DNA from: a virus
Lineage: Duplodnaviria; Caudoviricetes
Direction: 5' to 3' (one strand)
Length of the DNA stretch: 27,405 bases
IMG/VR virus record: IMGVR_UViG_3300028585_000058
Coordinates: 1 to 27,405 of that record
Part shown: piece by piece, positions 383 to 16,510 of the stretch
Position numbering within the stretch: position 1 is the first letter of the stretch
Layout: each line of letters starts with the position of its first letter
The notes under the pieces: generated by a model
Database searches by the model: none
The model's input: only the letters and a program-made list of their open reading frames with translations
Told to the model about the DNA's origin: nothing
Program-made: the position numbers and the translations under genes

Positions 383-411
383 ACTTTAGCCTAAAGCTAA
401 GAACGTCGCAA
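383..411 (-). promoter_or_regulatory. PL-like leftward sigma70 promoter
   Basis: Minus strand reads TTGCGA (411-406), 17 bp spacer, TAAAGT (388-383). Operator OL1 lies between and over the two boxes. Confidence 0.7.
386..400. promoter_or_regulatory. Repressor operator OL1 (TTAGC-N5-GCTAA)
   Basis: Perfect palindromic arms TTAGC CTAAA GCTAA. The same motif occurs three times between cI and cro. Confidence 0.8.
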
Positions 412-420
412 GAACTATTT

Positions 421-435
421 TTAGCCTAAGGCTAT
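421..435. promoter_or_regulatory. Repressor operator OL2
   Basis: TTAGC CTAAG GCTAT, one mismatch to the consensus. Confidence 0.78.
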
Positions 436-450
436 TTTCGATGTTATGAT
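422..450 (+). promoter_or_regulatory. Rightward extended -10 promoter divergent from PL, predicted start ~457
   Basis: TGt-TATGAT at 442-450 (extended -10). Its -35 position (422-427) is covered by OL2. Confidence 0.55.
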
Positions 451-456
451 GCGCCC

Positions 457-765
457 ATTGGCCGAGTCTGGCTGATTGCATGCCTGGAGTAGGGAGGGGA
501 AACCGCCGACGCCCAGGCCTAAGAGCCCAAGGACGACCGAGAGGGGCAACGCGTGGGTGGATCGTAGAGCGCGCCGGGGGCAGGTGGAAACACCTGGAAA
601 GTCTGCGAACAAGCGAAAGTGTCCGAAGGCGAAAGCATGGGATGCAGTAGCTCTCCACACAGCCGATTCCTTGTCGGCCTATAGGGAGGGTTACGCTCTG
701 GAACCGAGGCTCTGCTGGGATAAATCGAAGCCAGTAACTTAGAAAGATCTTCTTCGAACAGCCAA
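457..765 (+). ncRNA. Putative large structured non-coding RNA of unknown family
   Basis: Nested helices read by eye: 468-477/723-734, 482-487/513-518, 522-527/708-713, 565-571/694-700, 581-586/591-596, 647-656/685-694, 662-666/674-678. GNRA tetraloops at 499-502, 539-542, 587-590, 615-618 and 631-634. G-U wobbles indicate plus-strand RNA. Confidence 0.6.
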
Positions 766-818
766 GAACAACACCTCAACAGTACCTGATACGGGTGCGT
801 GGGAAAAAAGGCCCGAAA

Positions 819-1196
819 ATGTCGCAAAAACTGACGCTGGCGCGCTACCTGGAGGGCAGGGGCGAAGTAAAGTCGCTGACCCGAATCGAGGCCGAGGCAT
901 TTGGCGTCCCGTACCCTCTCGTGTCGGGCTGGCCGGCGCGCTTTGGGGCTGTGGAAATTACGACGGCAATGCTCGAAGACCTGGCGGCACGCATCACGAC
1001 GGCCAGGCAGTCAACCGCAACCAAGGCGCGCCGCGGGCTGGAGGGCGTCGAGGGGCGCGCGTCACAGGGATCGGAGCAGGCCGAGCCAATTCAGGCTGCA
1101 GATCATGTGTCCCGCTGCCCGTCGCCAGCCCGGGTACTTCAGGGGTTCGTGCTGCGCAAGGCGCGGCGCTATTGCCTGCGTGGGCCGGCGCTCTGA
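819..1196 (+). CDS. Hypothetical protein immediately downstream of the structured RNA
   Basis: ORF MSQKLTLARYL...EAEAFGVPYPLVSGW. ATG 819 preferred over GTG 795. A hairpin follows directly. Confidence 0.6.
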   Translation: MSQKLTLARYLEGRGEVKSLTRIEAEAFGVPYPLVSGWPARFGAVEITTAMLEDLAARITTARQSTATKARRGLEGVEGRASQGSEQAEPIQAADHVSRCPSPARVLQGFVLRKARRYCLRGPAL

Positions 1197-1200
1197 GCGT

Positions 1201-1223
1201 AAAAAAGCCCGCTCTCGGCGGGC
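1201..1223 (-). terminator. Intrinsic terminator between convergent genes (possibly bidirectional)
   Basis: Stem GCCCGC/GCGGGC (1207-1223) with A6 at 1201-1206, which gives a U-tract on the minus strand. Confidence 0.75.
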
Positions 1224-1243: not shown

Positions 1244-2191
1244 CTATTGCGGGATCAGCTTCAGTAAAGCGGGCAAGACTTGAGCCAGTATAACAACCCC
1301 AGCCACCCATAAAATGATTGAGGTCTTGGCCTCTGATACAACCGCTTTGGTATCAGCTATATCACTTTTCGTTGCGCCATTGACCTTGATTACCGCAACA
1401 TCAACCTTGATGGCGGCGACATCTTTTTCCAGCGCTGTGATTCGAGCTTCCATCTCGCCATCATCCCCGCCTTTGCCTGGGGTGTCAACCGGGCCACGCG
1501 GAGGCGTGCCACCTGAAGCTCCCTTTTGCATGACTGCCGTCATGGTTATGTCGAGGAGCTGCTTCAAAACTGGAAGCAACTCGTCTTTTAGTGCCGGATG
1601 GCTATTAGCGATTTCATTCAGGCGCGCGGTGGCAGCGGCGAGCACAGGCCCTGCATCAGAGAGTAAGTCCCCTGGAATCGTTGGTGATTGCGAAGATTCT
1701 TCCGCGGCGTTTTCTGCTTTCAAATATTTGGCCGGTGCTTCTTGCACTTGGAGCCACTGGTTATCTGACTGCTTTTGTGCATACGTATCACGGCCAGCCG
1801 AGGTCGCACATGATTCGAGTTCTGCCCGCTGCGAATCTAGTGAGGCAAGTTTTCGTTGCGCGTCACGCATGAAATCCTTAGCCCTATCTAGAATAGCGCC
1901 AATTCTTTTGTGAAGCAGGTGCTGAAGACGTTGGACATTCTCGTCTTGCGTGCCACGAGCAGCAACTACCCGAGCCTGCTGTGCTTTAAGTTCTCCCAGT
2001 AGTGATTGGACTTCACTCTGATATATATTGAGTCGATCAGGGTTGGGGTCGCCGCTATCGAACTCTTTTTCCATCCTGTTCACAGCGGACTCGAGTAAGA
2101 CGATATTTTGCGTAAACGAGCCTAGCTCGAAATTTTCGTTTTCGGTTTCTGCTCCAGCGAATGAAGCCCTGTCAGTTGTGCGAGTAGGCAT
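1244..2191 (-). CDS. Coiled-coil protein with C-terminal membrane anchor (CCDC90/DUF1640- or XhlA-like tail)
   Basis: 315 aa. Heptad-rich N-terminal half. C-terminal MEARITALEKDV..ATKSDI..K followed by hydrophobic IILWVAGVVILAQVL. Lower GC than the phage core. Confidence 0.7.
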   Translation of the reverse strand: MPTRTTDRASFAGAETENENFELGSFTQNIVLLESAVNRMEKEFDSGDPNPDRLNIYQSEVQSLLGELKAQQARVVAARGTQDENVQRLQHLLHKRIGAILDRAKDFMRDAQRKLASLDSQRAELESCATSAGRDTYAQKQSDNQWLQVQEAPAKYLKAENAAEESSQSPTIPGDLLSDAGPVLAAATARLNEIANSHPALKDELLPVLKQLLDITMTAVMQKGASGGTPPRGPVDTPGKGGDDGEMEARITALEKDVAAIKVDVAVIKVNGATKSDIADTKAVVSEAKTSIILWVAGVVILAQVLPALLKLIPQ

Positions 2192-2206
2192 ATTTCAACC
2201 AGTCAG

Positions 2207-2482
2207 CTAAACACATTTAAATGTGATTTCAGCTTTCGGGAAATTCCCAAAGATAAAAGGCGGCTGCGCTTCCTTTTCACTGGTAACGGTCGCCGTCTTG
2301 CCTCTACCAGAGCAGAACTTGCCGGCCTCGCTCATCGCTTCCGCCTTCAGTGTGCCGGATCCAGAGAAGCCGGTAGCGGCCTGTCGGGATACGAAGAACA
2401 TGTCTGGACCCATGGCCACGACACCAGAATTACTGGCACAGCCCGTCAAAGCGAGCGCGAACACCAAAATCAACTTCTTCAT
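2207..2482 (-). CDS. Small lipoprotein (91 aa)
   Basis: MKKLILVFALALTGC signal peptide with lipobox, plus two further cysteines. Start trimmed from the ORF-track call. Confidence 0.8.
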   Translation of the reverse strand: MKKLILVFALALTGCASNSGVVAMGPDMFFVSRQAATGFSGSGTLKAEAMSEAGKFCSGRGKTATVTSEKEAQPPFIFGNFPKAEITFKCV

Positions 2483-2718
2483 GAAACTCATCAGTTCGGC
2501 ATCTAAGCGTGCCGTTTCGCTCGCGCGAGTATAGCTCGACCGCGGACGTCGAAATCTACCCAATAATCACTGCTATTGCAACGCCGCCACGCCGTCTTTG
2601 CTGGTTAACCTCAGGTGGTGGGTCTCGCCGGCCGAGCGCTACTCAGGTGTAATTGGCGGGAATGATCGCCAAGGCGTTGAAGCTGTCCTTGAGGTGGAGC
2701 ATGCCACGCGGTGGAAGT

Positions 2719-2741
2719 AAAAAAGCCCGCTTGTGCGGGCT
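2719..2741 (-). terminator. Intrinsic terminator
   Basis: AGCCCGC-TTGT-GCGGGCT stem preceded by an A-run on the plus strand, 18 bp past the stop codon at 2760. Confidence 0.75.
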
Positions 2742-2759
2742 AGTATAGTTCGGCGGCGA

Positions 2760-3371
2760 TTATTTTTTGGTGTAACGGCCGTAAGCCTCGTACAACGACC
2801 CTTTGGGCAAAAGCTCGTAGAACACGTTGCTCTGAATATACAGACCGCCCACAATGCCGCTCTGGGCAGGATCCGTTCCTTCATCCAGAACGCAACTCTG
2901 GCTACCATTGCCGAAGTTGATGCACCACTGAGGCTGACCATTGGCAACTACTCGAGTAACGCCCGTGCCAGTGATCGACCTGGTAGATGCGGTCCTGCTT
3001 GCCGTGATCTTGTCGACTTTACCGGGGGTCGCCACTGCGCCGTTGGATAGCACAATGGATGAGTCAATAGTCTCGACGTACGTCGCAGTAATCTCGCCGC
3101 TTTCAGTTTCGGTAGCGACAATGGCTCCAGTGCAGTTCGCTCCGGCGTAATAGTCCGAGCGCGACGCGATTTTGAGGGTGTTTATTGCAGGGCTGGTAAT
3201 CGTAGCTTCCATCAACTCGTGGTCATCGCACCTAGCTACCCAGGTACCGACATAGGCAGCGAGTTTGTTGACTGGGGCCGAAGTGACTGGGGCTGCAGGG
3301 CTACTGTCACCGCCGCCGCCACATCCCGAGACCATCGCCGCTACGGCGCAGGTAGTCAGTAATTTTTTCAT
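2760..3371 (-). CDS. Lipoprotein (203 aa), beta-rich with several cysteines
   Basis: MKKLLTTCAVAAMVSGC-GGGG lipobox and linker. Start trimmed to ATG 3371. Confidence 0.8.
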   Translation of the reverse strand: MKKLLTTCAVAAMVSGCGGGGDSSPAAPVTSAPVNKLAAYVGTWVARCDDHELMEATITSPAINTLKIASRSDYYAGANCTGAIVATETESGEITATYVETIDSSIVLSNGAVATPGKVDKITASRTASTRSITGTGVTRVVANGQPQWCINFGNGSQSCVLDEGTDPAQSGIVGGLYIQSNVFYELLPKGSLYEAYGRYTKK

Positions 3372-3698
3372 GTTGTCCCATAGATATCTGACATTCAGGC
3401 GTGCCAGTTCGCTGCAGAAGTATAGCTGAGCGCTTTGCGCTGAAATCTCGCCAATATTCACCGAGTCGCCGATCGTGCCGCGTCCTTCGCTTTTCTTTCG
3501 GCCAGTTCCCTCAAATGGGCCGCGTGCGCCACACTGGATACAAATTTTGTGTTGCAGCCAATGCTTGCAGAGCAAAGTAACTTGATGTGCACGTCCTCAT
3601 GCGTCCAGTCCGCTGCCATGATCGCGGAACCTGGTCGCGATTCGCGTTGGGGTTGGCCGAACCGCCCGCTTTATCAGTAAGTTCTGGGCGCGGCGGAG

Positions 3699-4163
3699 CT
3701 ACAGGCGCCCGGTCAGCAGCCTGCCAAGCTGATACACCACGCGGCCAACCACTTTCATCTGGCCGCTGCGAGCATTGATCGGGTTGAAGTCCGGGTTAAG
3801 GAAGTTGAGATACCACTGGCCGCCGCGTTGGATCAGCTGCGCCACAACCGCCTCGCCATCCCAGTTCACCGCATATACCTCTCGGTTTCGCTTCGCCGTA
3901 TCACCAGTGTCGATCACCACCCAATCGTCCTCGAAAATTAAAGGTTCCAGGCCTCGATCTGCAACCTGCAGGGCCAGCAGGCGCATCGAATCAGCTCCCA
4001 GGTCGTGCACCACAGCAGCCGGTACCGGAATGGAGTTCGCGCCGAACATTTCAGGCTCAACTTCGAAGCCAGCAATACCGGCGCGCAGCCGTAGCTTCAC
4101 TGCTCGTACTGCGATGGTGCCGGCCGAGGCGTCGACGTCGGGGAAAGCTTGGCCCCGGGTCAT
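3699..4163 (-). CDS. Stand-alone S24 (LexA/CI C-terminal)-like domain, apparently catalytically inactive
   Basis: The pattern LQVADRGLEPLIFEDDWVVIDT...YAVNWDGEAVVAQL...NPDF..I...VVGRVV matches S24 except at the catalytic Ser and Lys. No HTH. ATGA overlap with the cI stop codon. Confidence 0.75.
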   Translation of the reverse strand: MTRGQAFPDVDASAGTIAVRAVKLRLRAGIAGFEVEPEMFGANSIPVPAAVVHDLGADSMRLLALQVADRGLEPLIFEDDWVVIDTGDTAKRNREVYAVNWDGEAVVAQLIQRGGQWYLNFLNPDFNPINARSGQMKVVGRVVYQLGRLLTGRL

Positions 4164-4870
4164 CCGCGCGAGCGCCGGTACCGCTTACGGTGCTCGACCA
4201 TCACGCCAATCACGACCAGGTGGTCAGTGTCGCTGCGCAGGGTAGCGTAGTCGTCATTGAGCGGCACCAGCTCGAACACCGTGTTTCCGCGCGCATCCAT
4301 GCCGCGTGGGCGATACTTCTTGAAGGTCGCCTGCTCACCACCGTTTTTCGCGACGACGAAGTCGCCCGGGTTCGGTGCCAGATCTGGGTCGATAATTACA
4401 CGGTCACCAGGGCGGAAATCCGGCGTCATCGACTCGCCCTCGACCTCGAGGCTGAACGCCCAGCGGGAAAGATTCTCATCGTCCGTGTACTCGACCGCAA
4501 AGCCAGCCCCTGGTGAGTACGGCGTTTCCATGTCTTTGAGCGCGCCAGCTTGCACGGCCGAAATCACGGGAATTGGACGGCCGCCGAGGCGCGCCGGTGA
4601 AACGTTCTCATCAAACTTCTTATCTTCCTTGGGAATACCGTGATCTGCGTCTAGCCAGCCAACAGGCTTCAAGCATCGCGTTTCAACGAGTCGGCACGAG
4701 CTGGCAGCCATGCCGCGTGGCTTGCCTGTGCCTGAGTTGATGGAGCCATTGATCCACTGGCTGACCTGAGCCTCGGATCGATCGACCTGTTCAGCAAGTG
4801 CCTTCACCGAGCCCAACTCGGTGACGAGTACGAGCAGGTTCTCTCGGCGAATCTGTTCTGTTGTTTTCAT
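4160..4870 (-). CDS. cI: CI-like prophage repressor (HTH plus S24 autopeptidase)
   Basis: N-terminal HTH, A-G cleavage site (VQAGA), catalytic Ser (GESMTP) and Lys (TFKKY). Divergent from cro. ATG 4870 preferred because the ORF-track extension runs into the operators. Confidence 0.93.
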   Translation of the reverse strand: MKTTEQIRRENLLVLVTELGSVKALAEQVDRSEAQVSQWINGSINSGTGKPRGMAASSCRLVETRCLKPVGWLDADHGIPKEDKKFDENVSPARLGGRPIPVISAVQAGALKDMETPYSPGAGFAVEYTDDENLSRWAFSLEVEGESMTPDFRPGDRVIIDPDLAPNPGDFVVAKNGGEQATFKKYRPRGMDARGNTVFELVPLNDDYATLRSDTDHLVVIGVMVEHRKRYRRSRG

Positions 4871-4881
4871 ATGGGCATTAA

Positions 4882-4943
4882 ATAGCGAAAGGCTAAAAAA
4901 ATACATGAGCCAAAGGCTTGTTAAATATTTAGCCTTAGGCTAA
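4882..4943. promoter_or_regulatory. OR region: three operators with divergent PRM and PR
   Basis: ATAGC-GAAAG-GCTAA (4882-4896), TGAGC-CAAAG-GCTTG (4906-4920) and TTAGC-CTTAG-GCTAA (4929-4943), spaced 24 and 23 bp. PR: TTGTTA 4918-4923, 17 bp, TAATAT 4941-4946. Confidence 0.85.
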
Positions 4944-4952
4944 TATCGTCAC

Positions 4953-5276
4953 ATGGACCTCAAAACTTATCTTTCTCAGGAGCGCGGCCGGGCAGCGGCA
5001 CTGGCGAAGGCCATCGGCGCCCACTCTCCAGATGTAAGCCGCTGGGCCGATGGCACGCGACCGGTGCCGGTTCACTTCGGAGCGCCGATCGAGAAGGCCA
5101 CCGATGGCGCAGTCACGCGGCAAGAGCTCTTTCCGATTGACTGGGCAACCATCTGGCCCGAGCTCGCTCATGAGAACCGCCGTGCCACGGATCCTGTTGC
5201 CGGTCCTGGCCGCGCCGGACGCAGTCCGCCGAACGCCGAGAAGCTGCTGAGCTTTGCGCCGGCGCCGCCCGAGTAG
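4953..5276 (+). CDS. cro: Cro-like regulator (YdaS/Cro family)
   Basis: HTH AALAKAIG..SPDVSRW and the IEKATDGAVTRQEL.P.DW..IWPEL motif. Divergent from cI. Confidence 0.88.
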   Translation: MDLKTYLSQERGRAAALAKAIGAHSPDVSRWADGTRPVPVHFGAPIEKATDGAVTRQELFPIDWATIWPELAHENRRATDPVAGPGRAGRSPPNAEKLLSFAPAPPE

Positions 5277-11975: not shown

Positions 11976-14591
11976 ATGTCTGCCAAGATTTTAAGCGAAT
12001 ACAACGAGTTCCTCCGGAAGAAGATCAAGCTCGCGCCGCGCAAGGGTTTCGACGTGGCGCTCGAGCAGATCAACCCGGCGCTCAAGCCGCACACCCGCGA
12101 CATCGTCCGGTGGGCGCTGCAGGGTGGCCAGCGCGCCATCTTCGCCTCATTCGGCCTGCACAAGACCAGCACCAACCTCGAGGTGATGCGCCAGATCGGC
12201 ATCCACCGGCCGTGCCTGCGTCTGATTGTGCTGCCGCTCGGCGTGCGCCAGGAGTTCACCCGCGAGGTGGCGAAGCGGTTCACCGGCGACTGCGCGGTCG
12301 ACCTGAAGTTCATCCGCTCCGATGACGAAATCGGCGGCACCGAAACCGTCTACATGACGAACTACGAGAGTGTGCGCGATGGCAAGGTCGACGTGCGCCG
12401 CTTCGGCGCCGCATCGCTGGACGAGGCGAGCATCCTGCGCAGCTTCGGGAGCAAGACCTACCAGGAGTTCCTGCCACTGTTCGACCAGGTCGAGTTCAAG
12501 TTCGTGTTCACGGCCACGCCGAGCCCGAACCGATTCAAAGAGCTGATCCACTATGCCGGCTTCTTGGGCGTCATGGACACCGGCCAGGCCCTGACGCGCT
12601 TCTTCCAGCGCGACAGCGAGAAGGCGGGCAACCTGACTCTGTACCCGCACAAGGAAACCGAGTTCTGGCTGTGGGTGGCCAGCTGGGCGTGCTTCATCCG
12701 GCGCCCGAGCGACCTGGGCCATTCGGACGAGGGCTACGACTTGCCGCCGCTCGAGGTGCACTACCACGAGGTGCCGAGCGACTACGAGGCCGCTGGCAAC
12801 GAGAAGAATGGGCAGGGCCTGCTGATCCCGAACGTGGCTATGGGCCTGTCGGCGGCCGCCGGCGAGAAGCGGCAGAGCCTGGCCGCGCGCGTCGCCAAGG
12901 TGGCAGAGATCGTCGGCGCCGCGCCGGACGACCACTTCGTGATCTGGCACGACCTCGAGGACGAGCGCCACGCTATCCAGGCGGCGCTGCCGGAAGCGGT
13001 CAGCGTGTGGGGCACGCAGCAGCTGGACGAGCGTGAGCAGCGCATCGCGGACTTCAGCGACGGCAAGTTCAAACTGCTGTCGACGAAGCCGATCATCGCC
13101 GGCAGCGGCTGCAACTTCCAGGTGCACTGCCACCGCGAGATCTTCGCCGGCATCGGCTTCAAGTTCAACGACTTCATCCAGGCCATCCACCGCGTGCAGC
13201 GCTTCCAGCAGACGCACCCGGTGCGCATCGACATCATCCACACCGAGGTCGAGCGCGCCGTGCTGGCCGAACTGCAGGAGAAATGGCGCCGGCACGACGA
13301 GATGCAGGAGAAGATGGGCGAGATCATCCGCACCTACGGCCTGGACCAGCTGTCGATGCAGGACAGCCTGGCGCGCACCATCGGCGTCGAACGGCACTTG
13401 GTCAAGAGCGAGCGCTTCACCGTAGCGAACAACGACTGCGTGCTGGAAGCGCTCGAGCAGCCGGACAACTCGGTCGGCCTGATCGTGACCAGCATCCCAT
13501 TCGCGAACCACTACGAGTACACGCCCAGCTACAACGACTTCGGCCACACCCAGGACAACGCTCACTTCTGGGAGCAGATGGACTTCCTGACGCCGCAGCT
13601 GCACCGGATCCTGCAGCCTGGCCGCATCTACGCCTGCCACGTGAAGGACCGGATCAACTTCGGCAACGTGACCGGCGCTGGCATCCCGACCGTCAGCCCG
13701 TTCCATGCAGAGGCGTTGTTCCACGGCATGAAGCACGGCTTCGACTACATGGGCATGATCACGGTCGTCACCGACGTGGTGCGCGAGAACAACCAGACCT
13801 ACCGCCTGGGCTATTCCGAGGTGTGCAAGGACGGCACGAAGATGGGCGTCGGGTCGCCCGAATACATCCTGCTGTTCCACAAGCCGCAAACGGACCGCAG
13901 CCGCGGCTATGCCGACGTGCCGGTCACCAAGGCGAAGCCGCTTTGCCAGAACGACGACGGCGCGCCGGTCGACTTCGATCGCCGCCTGGCGCCGCTCCCG
14001 GGCACTGGCTACAGCGTGGCACGCTGGCAGGTTGACGCGCACGCATTCTGGCGCTCGAGCGGCGACCGCCTGCTGAGCGCCGAGGAGCTGGCCAGCTACG
14101 GGCCCGGCAAGCTGGCCAAGATGTTCACCGAGCTGTCGCTGGCCAACGTCTACGACTACGAGTTCCACGTTCGGGTAGGCGAGGCCATGCTGGCGAACAA
14201 GACGCTGCCGGCCACCTTCATGAGCCTGGCGCCCGGCAGCGCCGATCCGATGGTGTGGCACGACATCGCGCGCATGCGCACCCTGAACGGCGAGCAGTCG
14301 GCGCGCGCGGTCGAGAACCATGTGTGCCCGTTCCAGATCGACATCGTGGACCGCCTGATCAGCCGCTACAGCAACCCGGGCGACGTCGTCTTCGACCCAT
14401 TCTGCGGCCTGGGCACGGTGCCGGTGCGCGCCATGAAGCTGGGCCGGCGCGGCGCCGGGTCGGAGTTGAACCCCGCGTACTTCGCCGACCAGGTGCACTA
14501 CTGCCGTGCGATGGAGCGCGAGGTCAGCATGCCGTCGCTGTTCGACATGGAGGCGATGGACGCCGCCCAGCCAGAGCGGGAGGCAGCGTGA
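11976..14591 (+). CDS. SF2/SNF2-like helicase domain fused to an N4/N6 amino-methyltransferase
   Basis: N-terminal ASFGLHKT (Walker A-like), DEAS, TATPSPN and QAIHRVQRFQQ. C-terminal VTSIPF (motif IV-like), HVCPFQ and FDPFCGLGT (motif I), i.e. beta-class order. Confidence 0.88.
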   Translation: MSAKILSEYNEFLRKKIKLAPRKGFDVALEQINPALKPHTRDIVRWALQGGQRAIFASFGLHKTSTNLEVMRQIGIHRPCLRLIVLPLGVRQEFTREVAKRFTGDCAVDLKFIRSDDEIGGTETVYMTNYESVRDGKVDVRRFGAASLDEASILRSFGSKTYQEFLPLFDQVEFKFVFTATPSPNRFKELIHYAGFLGVMDTGQALTRFFQRDSEKAGNLTLYPHKETEFWLWVASWACFIRRPSDLGHSDEGYDLPPLEVHYHEVPSDYEAAGNEKNGQGLLIPNVAMGLSAAAGEKRQSLAARVAKVAEIVGAAPDDHFVIWHDLEDERHAIQAALPEAVSVWGTQQLDEREQRIADFSDGKFKLLSTKPIIAGSGCNFQVHCHREIFAGIGFKFNDFIQAIHRVQRFQQTHPVRIDIIHTEVERAVLAELQEKWRRHDEMQEKMGEIIRTYGLDQLSMQDSLARTIGVERHLVKSERFTVANNDCVLEALEQPDNSVGLIVTSIPFANHYEYTPSYNDFGHTQDNAHFWEQMDFLTPQLHRILQPGRIYACHVKDRINFGNVTGAGIPTVSPFHAEALFHGMKHGFDYMGMITVVTDVVRENNQTYRLGYSEVCKDGTKMGVGSPEYILLFHKPQTDRSRGYADVPVTKAKPLCQNDDGAPVDFDRRLAPLPGTGYSVARWQVDAHAFWRSSGDRLLSAEELASYGPGKLAKMFTELSLANVYDYEFHVRVGEAMLANKTLPATFMSLAPGSADPMVWHDIARMRTLNGEQSARAVENHVCPFQIDIVDRLISRYSNPGDVVFDPFCGLGTVPVRAMKLGRRGAGSELNPAYFADQVHYCRAMEREVSMPSLFDMEAMDAAQPEREAA

Positions 14592-15102: not shown

Positions 15103-15831
15103 ATGGGAAGCATGCTCACACTGCATACTACCGGCGGCGCCGACGTCACGATGTCGAGCCGCGAGATCGCCGACCTGGTCGAGAAGCGGCACGACAACGT
15201 GCTGCGCACGATCGAGGGCCTGGCCGCGCGCGGCGCGATCACACCCCCTCAATCTGAGGAAGTCCCGAACGACGGCCCTGGCCCGAAGACCATCCGGCAA
15301 TACCGCGTCGGCAAGCGCGACTCGTATGTGATCGTGGCGCAGCTGTCGCCTGAGTTCACCGCGCGCCTGGTCGACCGCTGGCAGGAGTTGGAGTTGGCCG
15401 CGCCGGCGCCGGCTCTGCCGCGCACGTTCGCGGAAGCGCTGCGTCTGGCGGCCGACCAGCAGGACCTGATCGCGGCGCAGGCCGAGCAGCTCGCCGCCGC
15501 CGCGCCGGCGGTGGAGTTCGTCGAGCGCTACGCCGACTCGACTGGCACGAAGGGTTTCCGCCAGGTGGCCAAGCTGCTGGCCGCGAAAGAGAACCTGTTC
15601 CGCGAGTTCCTGATCGACCAGAAGATCCTGTACCGGCTTGGCAGCGAGTTGACGCCGCACGCCCAGCACATCGACGCAGGCCGCTTCTGCGTGAAGGCCG
15701 GCACGGCGGAGAGCGGTCATGCGTTCAACTCGGCGCGCTTCACCCCAAAGGGAGTGACCTGGATCGCGGGGGAGTGGGCAAAGCACCAGGTGGCGCAGCG
15801 CCAGCGCCAGGGGGAGGTGGCCCATGCGTGA
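15103..15831 (+). CDS. Rha-family/antirepressor protein with a KilAC (ANT) C-terminal domain
   Basis: TMSSREIADLVEKRHDNVLRTI, LVDRWQELE, PRTFAEALRLAAD and RFTPKGVTWIA. Confidence 0.88.
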   Translation: MGSMLTLHTTGGADVTMSSREIADLVEKRHDNVLRTIEGLAARGAITPPQSEEVPNDGPGPKTIRQYRVGKRDSYVIVAQLSPEFTARLVDRWQELELAAPAPALPRTFAEALRLAADQQDLIAAQAEQLAAAAPAVEFVERYADSTGTKGFRQVAKLLAAKENLFREFLIDQKILYRLGSELTPHAQHIDAGRFCVKAGTAESGHAFNSARFTPKGVTWIAGEWAKHQVAQRQRQGEVAHA

Positions 15832-16510
15832 TTACTCCCCACTGCGTGGCCTGGCTGCCGGTGCGCCGAGCGTGCACTTGAAGTCGTCGACAGTTATCCA
15901 GCTGCTGGACGAGCTGGACCGCCTGCGCGCCGGCGGCGCCGCGCCGACCAAGCTGAAGCGCAACGACTACCCGGCGGACTTTGAGGCCGCCTGGGAAGCA
16001 TACCCGGACCGGCCCGGCGACAGCAAGAAGGCCGCGCACAAGGCCTGGGCCGCCCGGCTCAAGGACGGCGCGACTGTGGCGGAAATGCTGGCCGGCGCCC
16101 AGGCATACGCCGCCTACGTCAAGGCGATGAAGATCGAGCCGGTGTTTATCAAGCAGGCGGCGACGTTCTTCGGGCCGGGCGAGCACTTCGCGGCCGACTG
16201 GACCGCGCCGGCCAGCCAGCCCAAGCTCGCCGCCGGCGGCGCCTGGTGGGCGTCGGATGCCTCGATCCTGGCTAAAGGCGCCGAGCTGGGCCTGGCACCG
16301 CGTTCGGGCGAGTACATGGGGCAGTTCAAGGCCCGCATCGAGGTCGCCATGGATCCTGCACTCGCGCCCCCGGCCGCCGTCTCGCCGATTCGGCCGGTGG
16401 CCACGCCGCCCGTGCCCGCCCAGCCGGAGCAGCGCGCGCGCAAGCCTGACGGCATCGGCTCACTGAAAGACCTGGTGCGCCGCGAGCCGCCGCCGGCGAG
16501 GGCCGCGTGA
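15824..16510 (+). CDS. Protein resembling the C-terminal domain of phage replication initiators, with a short atypical N-terminus
   Basis: YPADFEAAWEAYP.R....K.AA.KAW...Y.....FIKQAATFFGP..HF...W motif starts at about residue 48. No room for an N-terminal winged-helix domain. Confidence 0.7.
   Translation: MRDYSPLRGLAAGAPSVHLKSSTVIQLLDELDRLRAGGAAPTKLKRNDYPADFEAAWEAYPDRPGDSKKAAHKAWAARLKDGATVAEMLAGAQAYAAYVKAMKIEPVFIKQAATFFGPGEHFAADWTAPASQPKLAAGGAWWASDASILAKGAELGLAPRSGEYMGQFKARIEVAMDPALAPPAAVSPIRPVATPPVPAQPEQRARKPDGIGSLKDLVRREPPPARAA

Follow-up and report, generated by a model that had tools for sequence, protein, structure and literature searches.

The window, the whole 27,405-nt stretch of DNA analyzed here, is a 27.4-kb, about half-complete record of a temperate lambdoid phage. 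It carries an element that, judged from its homologs, is a conserved, pseudoknotted, noncoding unit, and in fold and motif order the 3' core of ColE1-type RNA II is present in it in remote form. We consider it likely that this element is a CI-gated, ColE1 RNA II-like replication primer at which replication of the phage DNA would start. This reading draws on the conservation of the element, its covariation-based fold, its likeness to RNA II, the operators at its promoter, and the truncated initiators of its carriers (Table 1).

Table 1. Positions of the features of the window discussed in the text
Feature	Position	Strand	Basis or remark
Operator 1, palindromic 13-mer with one mismatch	387..399		Same motif at the cI/cro region, 4883-4942
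Operator 2, across the expected -35 of the rightward promoter	422..434		13-mer motif
Extended -10 box (TGnTATGAT) of the predicted RNA promoter	442..450	+	Sequence; TAnnAT in homologs
P1, local 5' hairpin	457..476	+	Variable sequence with compensatory changes
P2, invariant GNRA-capped inner motif	482..518	+	Also in RF02932-bearing elements of the same slot
P4 helix, loop carries the 5' strand of the pseudoknot	550..573	+	Invariant pairs, without covariation
Pseudoknot 562-568/602-608, encloses GCGC, G-run, and hairpin 581-596	562..608	+	Core common with ColE1-type RNA II
Helix	574-579/696-701	+	Part of the revised fold
P7 module, GAAA hairpin, helix 619-624/640-645	619..645	+	Pair counts in homologs
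P8 long helix, inner hairpin, G-rich 3' strand	647..694	+	Corresponds to the final helix of RNA II
End motif, predicted RNA-to-DNA switch near 720-724	695..725	+	Placed by the colinear A-run of ColE1
Conserved tail, hairpin 782-786/794-798 and A-run	780..811	+	Motif in 36/44 elements
125-aa ORF, family unknown	819..1196	+	Follows 37/44 elements
Terminator for minus-strand transcripts running into the element	1202..1223	-	Terminator scan
cI-like repressor, S24 peptidase domain	4160..4906	-	Domain match
cro	4953-5276
O-like replication gene, C-terminal domain only, without N-terminal initiator domain	15824..16510	+	PHROG match

Conservation and coding potential of the element

Homologs were collected by scanning viral and metagenome contigs for sequence patterns and by searching genomes. 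Besides the window, 54 distinct elements of its type were found, and the first 27 homologs were 61 to 98% identical. The conserved stretch begins at about position 457 and ends at about 721; a tail motif up to about 812 is conserved as well, and conservation falls from 0.92 at 697-716 to 0.72 at 717-736 and 0.63 beyond. The RNA strand is G-rich, with a skew of +0.17 to +0.32 in 34 homologs, which speaks for the primer reading. An earlier note on this DNA had proposed a plus-strand, noncoding structured element, and this is supported by the homologs: the frame of the ORF at 476-742 is open in only 2 of 39, and this ORF was rejected as the conserved unit.

BLAST searches with the element gave no match in cultured phages and only chance matches in plasmids, and a class-wide sample of 151 genomes returned only G005, already in the set. 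Four weak genome matches (L084, L088, L090, and L091) were dropped, as they lie in coding-like DNA. Positions 1471-1616 of L087 (genome G382) hold part of the core in diverged form, with the P2 motif missing. In the noncarriers L067, L069, and L072, another repeated, structured-looking motif lies in the leader upstream of a shared leftward gene. Our literature search, which left subscription papers mostly outside, found no paper on the element or on a ColE1-type phage primer; the motif may be catalogued without function in the alignments of PMC10690425, which that search did not cover.

Besides cI and cro, the window encodes methylases, an antirepressor, and head genes. Because the nearest relatives of its cI repressor (62 to 68% identical) lie in Massilia and one Burkholderiaceae genome, the hosts of this phage are probably Massilia bacteria.

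A revised fold with a covarying pseudoknot

The earlier note had described a nested fold inside a long closing helix. The structured element proved real, but the outer parts of that fold were wrong. All the listed helices can pair in the window, but C694 was claimed by two of them at once. Helices 482/518, 581/596, and 647/694 are kept with compensatory changes in 39 homologs, and loops of GNRA pattern were found at 499, 539, 587, 615, and 631, matching the five that had been claimed. The closing helix 468-477/723-734 was paired in only 64.8% of the cells in the same homologs; helix 522/713 reached 80.6% and contains one column that is unpaired in 22 of the 39, and in helix 565/700 no pair was altered on both sides. 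The closing helix and these two inner helices were rejected on the pair counts. The homologs align poorly over the inner hairpin 662-678, which is 26% paired in either structure, so that the counts give it no support.

Over the 39 homologs, 90.1% of the cells were paired in the revised fold versus 79.4% in the earlier structure, a margin that is partly built in because the revised fold was derived from those same homologs. Covariation was strongest at the pair 563-607 of the pseudoknot, which was paired in 41/41 sequences (CG in 26, GC in 10, AT in 2, GT in 2, and TA in 1). This pseudoknot is also kept in the distant members L105, L089, and L356. The folding energy was not above chance relative to shuffled sequences (z of -0.94 on the plus strand and +0.66 on the minus strand).

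Two stretches of the window, 623-643 and 704-721, form similar modules (CC-GA(A)G-GC...GC-(A)TGGGAT), and positions 642 and 720 change together (AA in 32 and GG in 7, and likewise in L105 and L301). They may represent a repeated internal-loop motif or an alternative pairing.

Likeness to ColE1-type RNA II

A scan of the window against Rfam gave no family match, including group I and II introns, RNase P, tmRNA, riboswitches, and known ribozymes. The earlier note had not recognized the RNA as a group I or II intron, RNase P, tmRNA, or riboswitch, and this is borne out; the idea that it resembles nothing known fails, as its core matches the 3' part of RNA II. This likeness was tested by alignment, sequence HMMs, and covariance models. 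A plain local alignment to the whole of ColE1 was uninformative (score of 160 versus 153.5 ± 6.3 for shuffles). Sequence-only HMM profiles, run in both directions, linked the window to no plasmid; only L356 was matched (E of 0.013). Because such profiles miss the link, the homology to RNA II is remote.

The phage covariance model, built on the core at 480-612, placed its best match within the RNA II region in 8/9 enterobacterial ColE1-type loci. The scores (8.5 to 11.7 bits) did not stand out from control phage DNA, of which 97 kb gave up to 11.1 bits. On ColE1 itself, a match in the mobC region ranked above the one in RNA II. A closer likeness was seen in pAsa2 of Aeromonas, described as ColE1-type (PMC5736529) and picked before its sequence was viewed. 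There, the best match (13.5 bits) fell in the intergenic origin region and overlapped the best match of the enterobacterial ColE1 model. The same place was matched in 6/6 further plasmids of the pAsa2 group, with 13.3 to 19.1 bits.

The reciprocal model was built from the seven pAsa2-group plasmids only, with an automatic structure and over a region delimited after the likeness had been noticed. In 84,422 bases, it ranked positions 545-664 of the window, plus strand, first (21.1 bits; E of 2.4e-4, a rough value, as are all our covariance E-values, from a short calibration), and the next match scored 14.7 bits. At the elements of other carriers it scored 26.1 (L356), 24.3 (L058), 22.3 (L142), and 20.3 bits (L042). 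Over 18 type-1 loci, four exceeded 20 bits, six more lay between 13.8 and 17.3 bits, and the rest were weak or missed, among them L101, L105, L111, and L143 with 8 to 10 bits and L089 with no match at its element. The enterobacterial ColE1 model gave 8.2 bits on the window (E of 1.1).

By hand comparison, eight segments are colinear in the window, pAsa2, and ColE1. The order is the same in RNA II and in the phage element: a pseudoknot-type pairing around GCGC, a G-run, and a hairpin, followed by a long helix with a G-rich 3' strand. The matching long-range pairing shows a compensatory change both within the ColE1 family (L519 versus eight others) and among the phage elements. A motif descriptor found 16/16 plasmid loci and 54/54 phage elements, with no match in 349 kb of control strands; we do not count it as a test because it was written after both sets had been seen. 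As a side observation, RNA II contains a six-pair long-range helix (L092, 1067-1127; L519) with a compensatory change in one Serratia plasmid, of which we found no description in the literature consulted.

The ColE1 A-run at 1193-1197, which we take to be the RNA-to-DNA switch, maps to about 720-724 of the window, where conservation drops. The predicted switch site is placed by enterobacterial ColE1, because the end motif of the pAsa2 group is unlike that of the phages. The conserved -10 box of the phages lies about 270 nt before this site; the length to the switch is predicted to be about 265 nt, compared to about 550 nt in ColE1 (PMC5043065). Two further traits may be common to both: the phage element has a predicted promoter of its own, and most phage carriers lack an intact initiator. 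The two RNAs also differ. For the 5' region of ColE1 RNA II whose stem-loops are bound by the antisense RNA I, no counterpart was found in the phage element, and the model matches cover the 3' core only; the phage element has repressor operators at its promoter, where ColE1 has RNA I control. The P7 module is extra in the phages, without a counterpart in the plasmid RNAs compared by hand. We liken the element to ColE1 RNA II but do not call it a member, because the long RNA I-bound 5' region is absent.

Predicted promoter and operators

The earlier note had placed an extended -10 box just upstream of the first helix and an operator across its -35 region. The box is present, and a TAnnAT box lies just before P1 in 48/54 homologs; operator 2 covers the expected -35 region. 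A promoter-consensus scan of the window called no promoter at this box, and no antisense promoter was called at the element. The operator 13-mer has 11 matches in the window versus 2.45 expected, including both upstream sites and the cI/cro region.

cI could be located in 8/23 carrier regions examined. In all eight, 13-mers from upstream of the RNA recur at cI/cro, seven of them with at most one mismatch. Their sequence differs between phages, and the recurring 13-mers show 0 to 2 mismatches versus a mean of about 3 in shuffles. Because they recur at the cI/cro region, it is reasonable to infer that the RNA promoter is under repressor (CI) control.

Truncated initiators in carrier phages

The O-like gene of the window matches PHROG profiles over positions 134-228 of 272 and 169-259 of 383, and Pfam finds no HTH in it. 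Among the 24 type-1 carriers whose right early region was read (window included), 20 have initiators reduced to the C-terminal part; full-length initiators occur in the remaining four, G407, G468, and G471 (one clade) and G461. The carriers of an RF02932-type RNA (see below) were C-terminal-only in 4/4 cases (G413, G457, G434, and G429, the last scoring 45.7 bits, below the cut-off). The truncated genes span three PHROG families (270/26426, 391, and 678); start sites of the initiators were inferred by homology. Neither RNA occurs in eight records that have full initiators and a completeness of at least 70%, among them the two close relatives G410 and G412. The association between RNA presence and initiator type gave a Fisher p of 1.6e-5, to be read with the rows being related and several noncarriers distant.

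Left out of this count were G418, G419, G421, and G425, with a truncated initiator and no RNA match, whose contigs stop 2.5 to 6 kb before Ant (the window element lies 14.6 kb before Ant), and G420, G432, G439, and G444, with a full initiator but at most 53% complete. The remaining noncarriers of the 49 records, with unclassified initiators, are also outside it.

The window shares with a lambda-type O/P origin the lambdoid layout, the CI/Cro control, and an O-like gene after the antirepressor. Unlike a lambda-type initiator, its O-like protein lacks the N-terminal DNA-binding domain. In lambda, the iterons lie inside O; the proposed origin of the window would lie beside the left operators, 15 kb from the O-like gene. 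The truncated forms have a short new N-terminal segment. The window protein begins with MRDY (15824-15840), like the full-length proteins of G407, L432, and L451, which hints at an internal deletion.

In two distant members, G282 and G414, our searches found no O-like gene, and the element lies beside helicase and Toprim primase genes, directly behind them in G282 and 1.5 to 3.5 kb ahead of them in G414, a placement that speaks for a role in replication. Against such a role, the cumulative GC skew did not change direction at the element in any of 6 near-complete records. The position of these distant members would also fit an origin activated by transcription but not primed by the RNA, which would open the DNA as an R-loop and leave it to a helicase loader and primase to start both strands. 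So would the C-terminal O-like domain kept by carriers, some with a DnaC-like loader, and the report that in ColE1 the displaced strand alone, if at least 40 nt long, can admit helicase (PMC5043065). Against such an origin stands the likeness to RNA II, which reaches the last helix and the end motif, beside the ColE1 switch site, and we regard this alternative as unlikely.

An alternative core in the same slot

RF02932 (Betaproteobacteria-1) gave no match on the window at E values up to 10 (cut-off of 49.4 bits). In the sister phages L066, L145, and L161, a different core, flanked as in the window by P1/P2 on one side and by the tail and the ORF on the other, scores 84 to 87 bits on this family. 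The core, in the slot of window positions 520-780, is replaced by an RF02932-type RNA in L066, L068, L071, L145, L161, L271, and L266; L068 lacks the inner P2 motif. The RF02932 and window elements share slot, P1/P2, tail, and ORF, as well as the truncation of the initiator. Unlike the window element, RF02932 cores are not singled out by the plasmid covariance model, and RF02932 may be a second, unrelated-looking core.

The main text of PMC5737381, its supplement aside, does not contain the RF02932 motif. It describes ARRPOF, PAGEV, and GEBRO, structured motifs of 223 to 349 nt linked to plasmid replication, with ARRPOF lying within a region that replicates without a rep gene (PMC5737381). Like these, the proposed element is structured and would be linked to replication; the window has no Rfam match to any of them.

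That an unrelated-looking core can occupy the same slot could also be expected if the element descended from an RNA II-like primer and were now trans-acting or a relic, for example, a phage small RNA or a ribozyme. The full initiators kept in four carriers and the many invariant loop bases point the same way. We nevertheless find this distinctly unlikely, since the positions common with RNA II are strongly conserved, the element occurs once, always at the same place next to the operators, and Rfam has no matching ribozyme family. Among the three roles offered by the earlier note, the replication primer or origin RNA is the one favored by the evidence.

Conserved tail and downstream ORF

The tail is a candidate single-strand loading signal or ribosome-binding region. 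The purine-rich stretch at 755-781 looks like the linker that encodes Gln and Glu in full-length O-like genes (G407, G468, and G471), a likeness that may be low-complexity chance. The ORF downstream has 63 homologs, none of them named, and no Pfam, PHROG, or Atlas match; in the predicted model, the N-terminal 80 residues are helical and the tail is disordered.

The third role offered was that of a scaffold for this ORF. Such a scaffold, a cis-acting leader, or an antiterminator RNA, none with a role in replication, would account for the presence of the ORF behind most elements, RF02932-type included, for the A-run and short GG just ahead of its start, and for the lack of a called plus-strand terminator between RNA and ORF. 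In 7 of the 44 elements, the core is kept although the ORF is missing, and a leader would leave both the likeness to RNA II and the truncation of the initiators unexplained. We hold this to be very unlikely.

Proposed mechanism and implications

RNA priming of the ColE1 type is familiar from small plasmids, and protein-initiated origins have their textbook case in lambdoid phages. If confirmed, a CI-gated primer would join both worlds, as a temperate phage origin that is turned on when a repressor leaves the promoter of an RNA. For transcription, R-loop formation, processing, priming, and the role of the truncated protein, we infer the following course, with the ColE1 pathway behind it (PMC5043065, PMC5935869). 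Once the operators are free of CI, transcription by host RNA polymerase would begin at about position 457, and the folded RNA would remain paired with its template near position 720 in a persistent R-loop. After cleavage by RNase H, the RNA would serve DNA polymerase I as a primer for synthesis to the right, in the direction of cI. Helicase would load on the displaced plus strand, probably with the help of the O-like protein that is reduced to its C-terminal domain. The off switch would be CI where ColE1 has RNA I; a prophage would need such a switch so that no origin fires within the chromosome.

It seems to us an even chance that, across this lambdoid group, the protein initiator has been swapped for a CI-controlled ColE1-like primer RNA, with only the helicase-loading half kept in initiators of three families; the short RNA would then represent the minimal priming core of RNA II, and RF02932 a second, interchangeable primer core in the slot. 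For ColE1, what triggers the persistent RNA-DNA hybrid is still described as speculative (PMC5043065). A half-length natural version with a covarying pseudoknot would point to the critical bases and make this question testable. If confirmed, our reading would also suggest a role for RF02932, and vector work would gain a small origin that can be induced.

Other observations in the window

A second S24-peptidase gene (3699-4163) directly follows cI, and the same pair occurs in G408. Between the RNA unit and cI, positions 1244-3575 hold minus-strand, low-GC genes of unknown family, and the content of this cargo slot differs from carrier to carrier. Finally, positions 11976-14591 encode an 871-aa helicase-methylase fusion (phrog_16 and an N6/N4 methylase domain).
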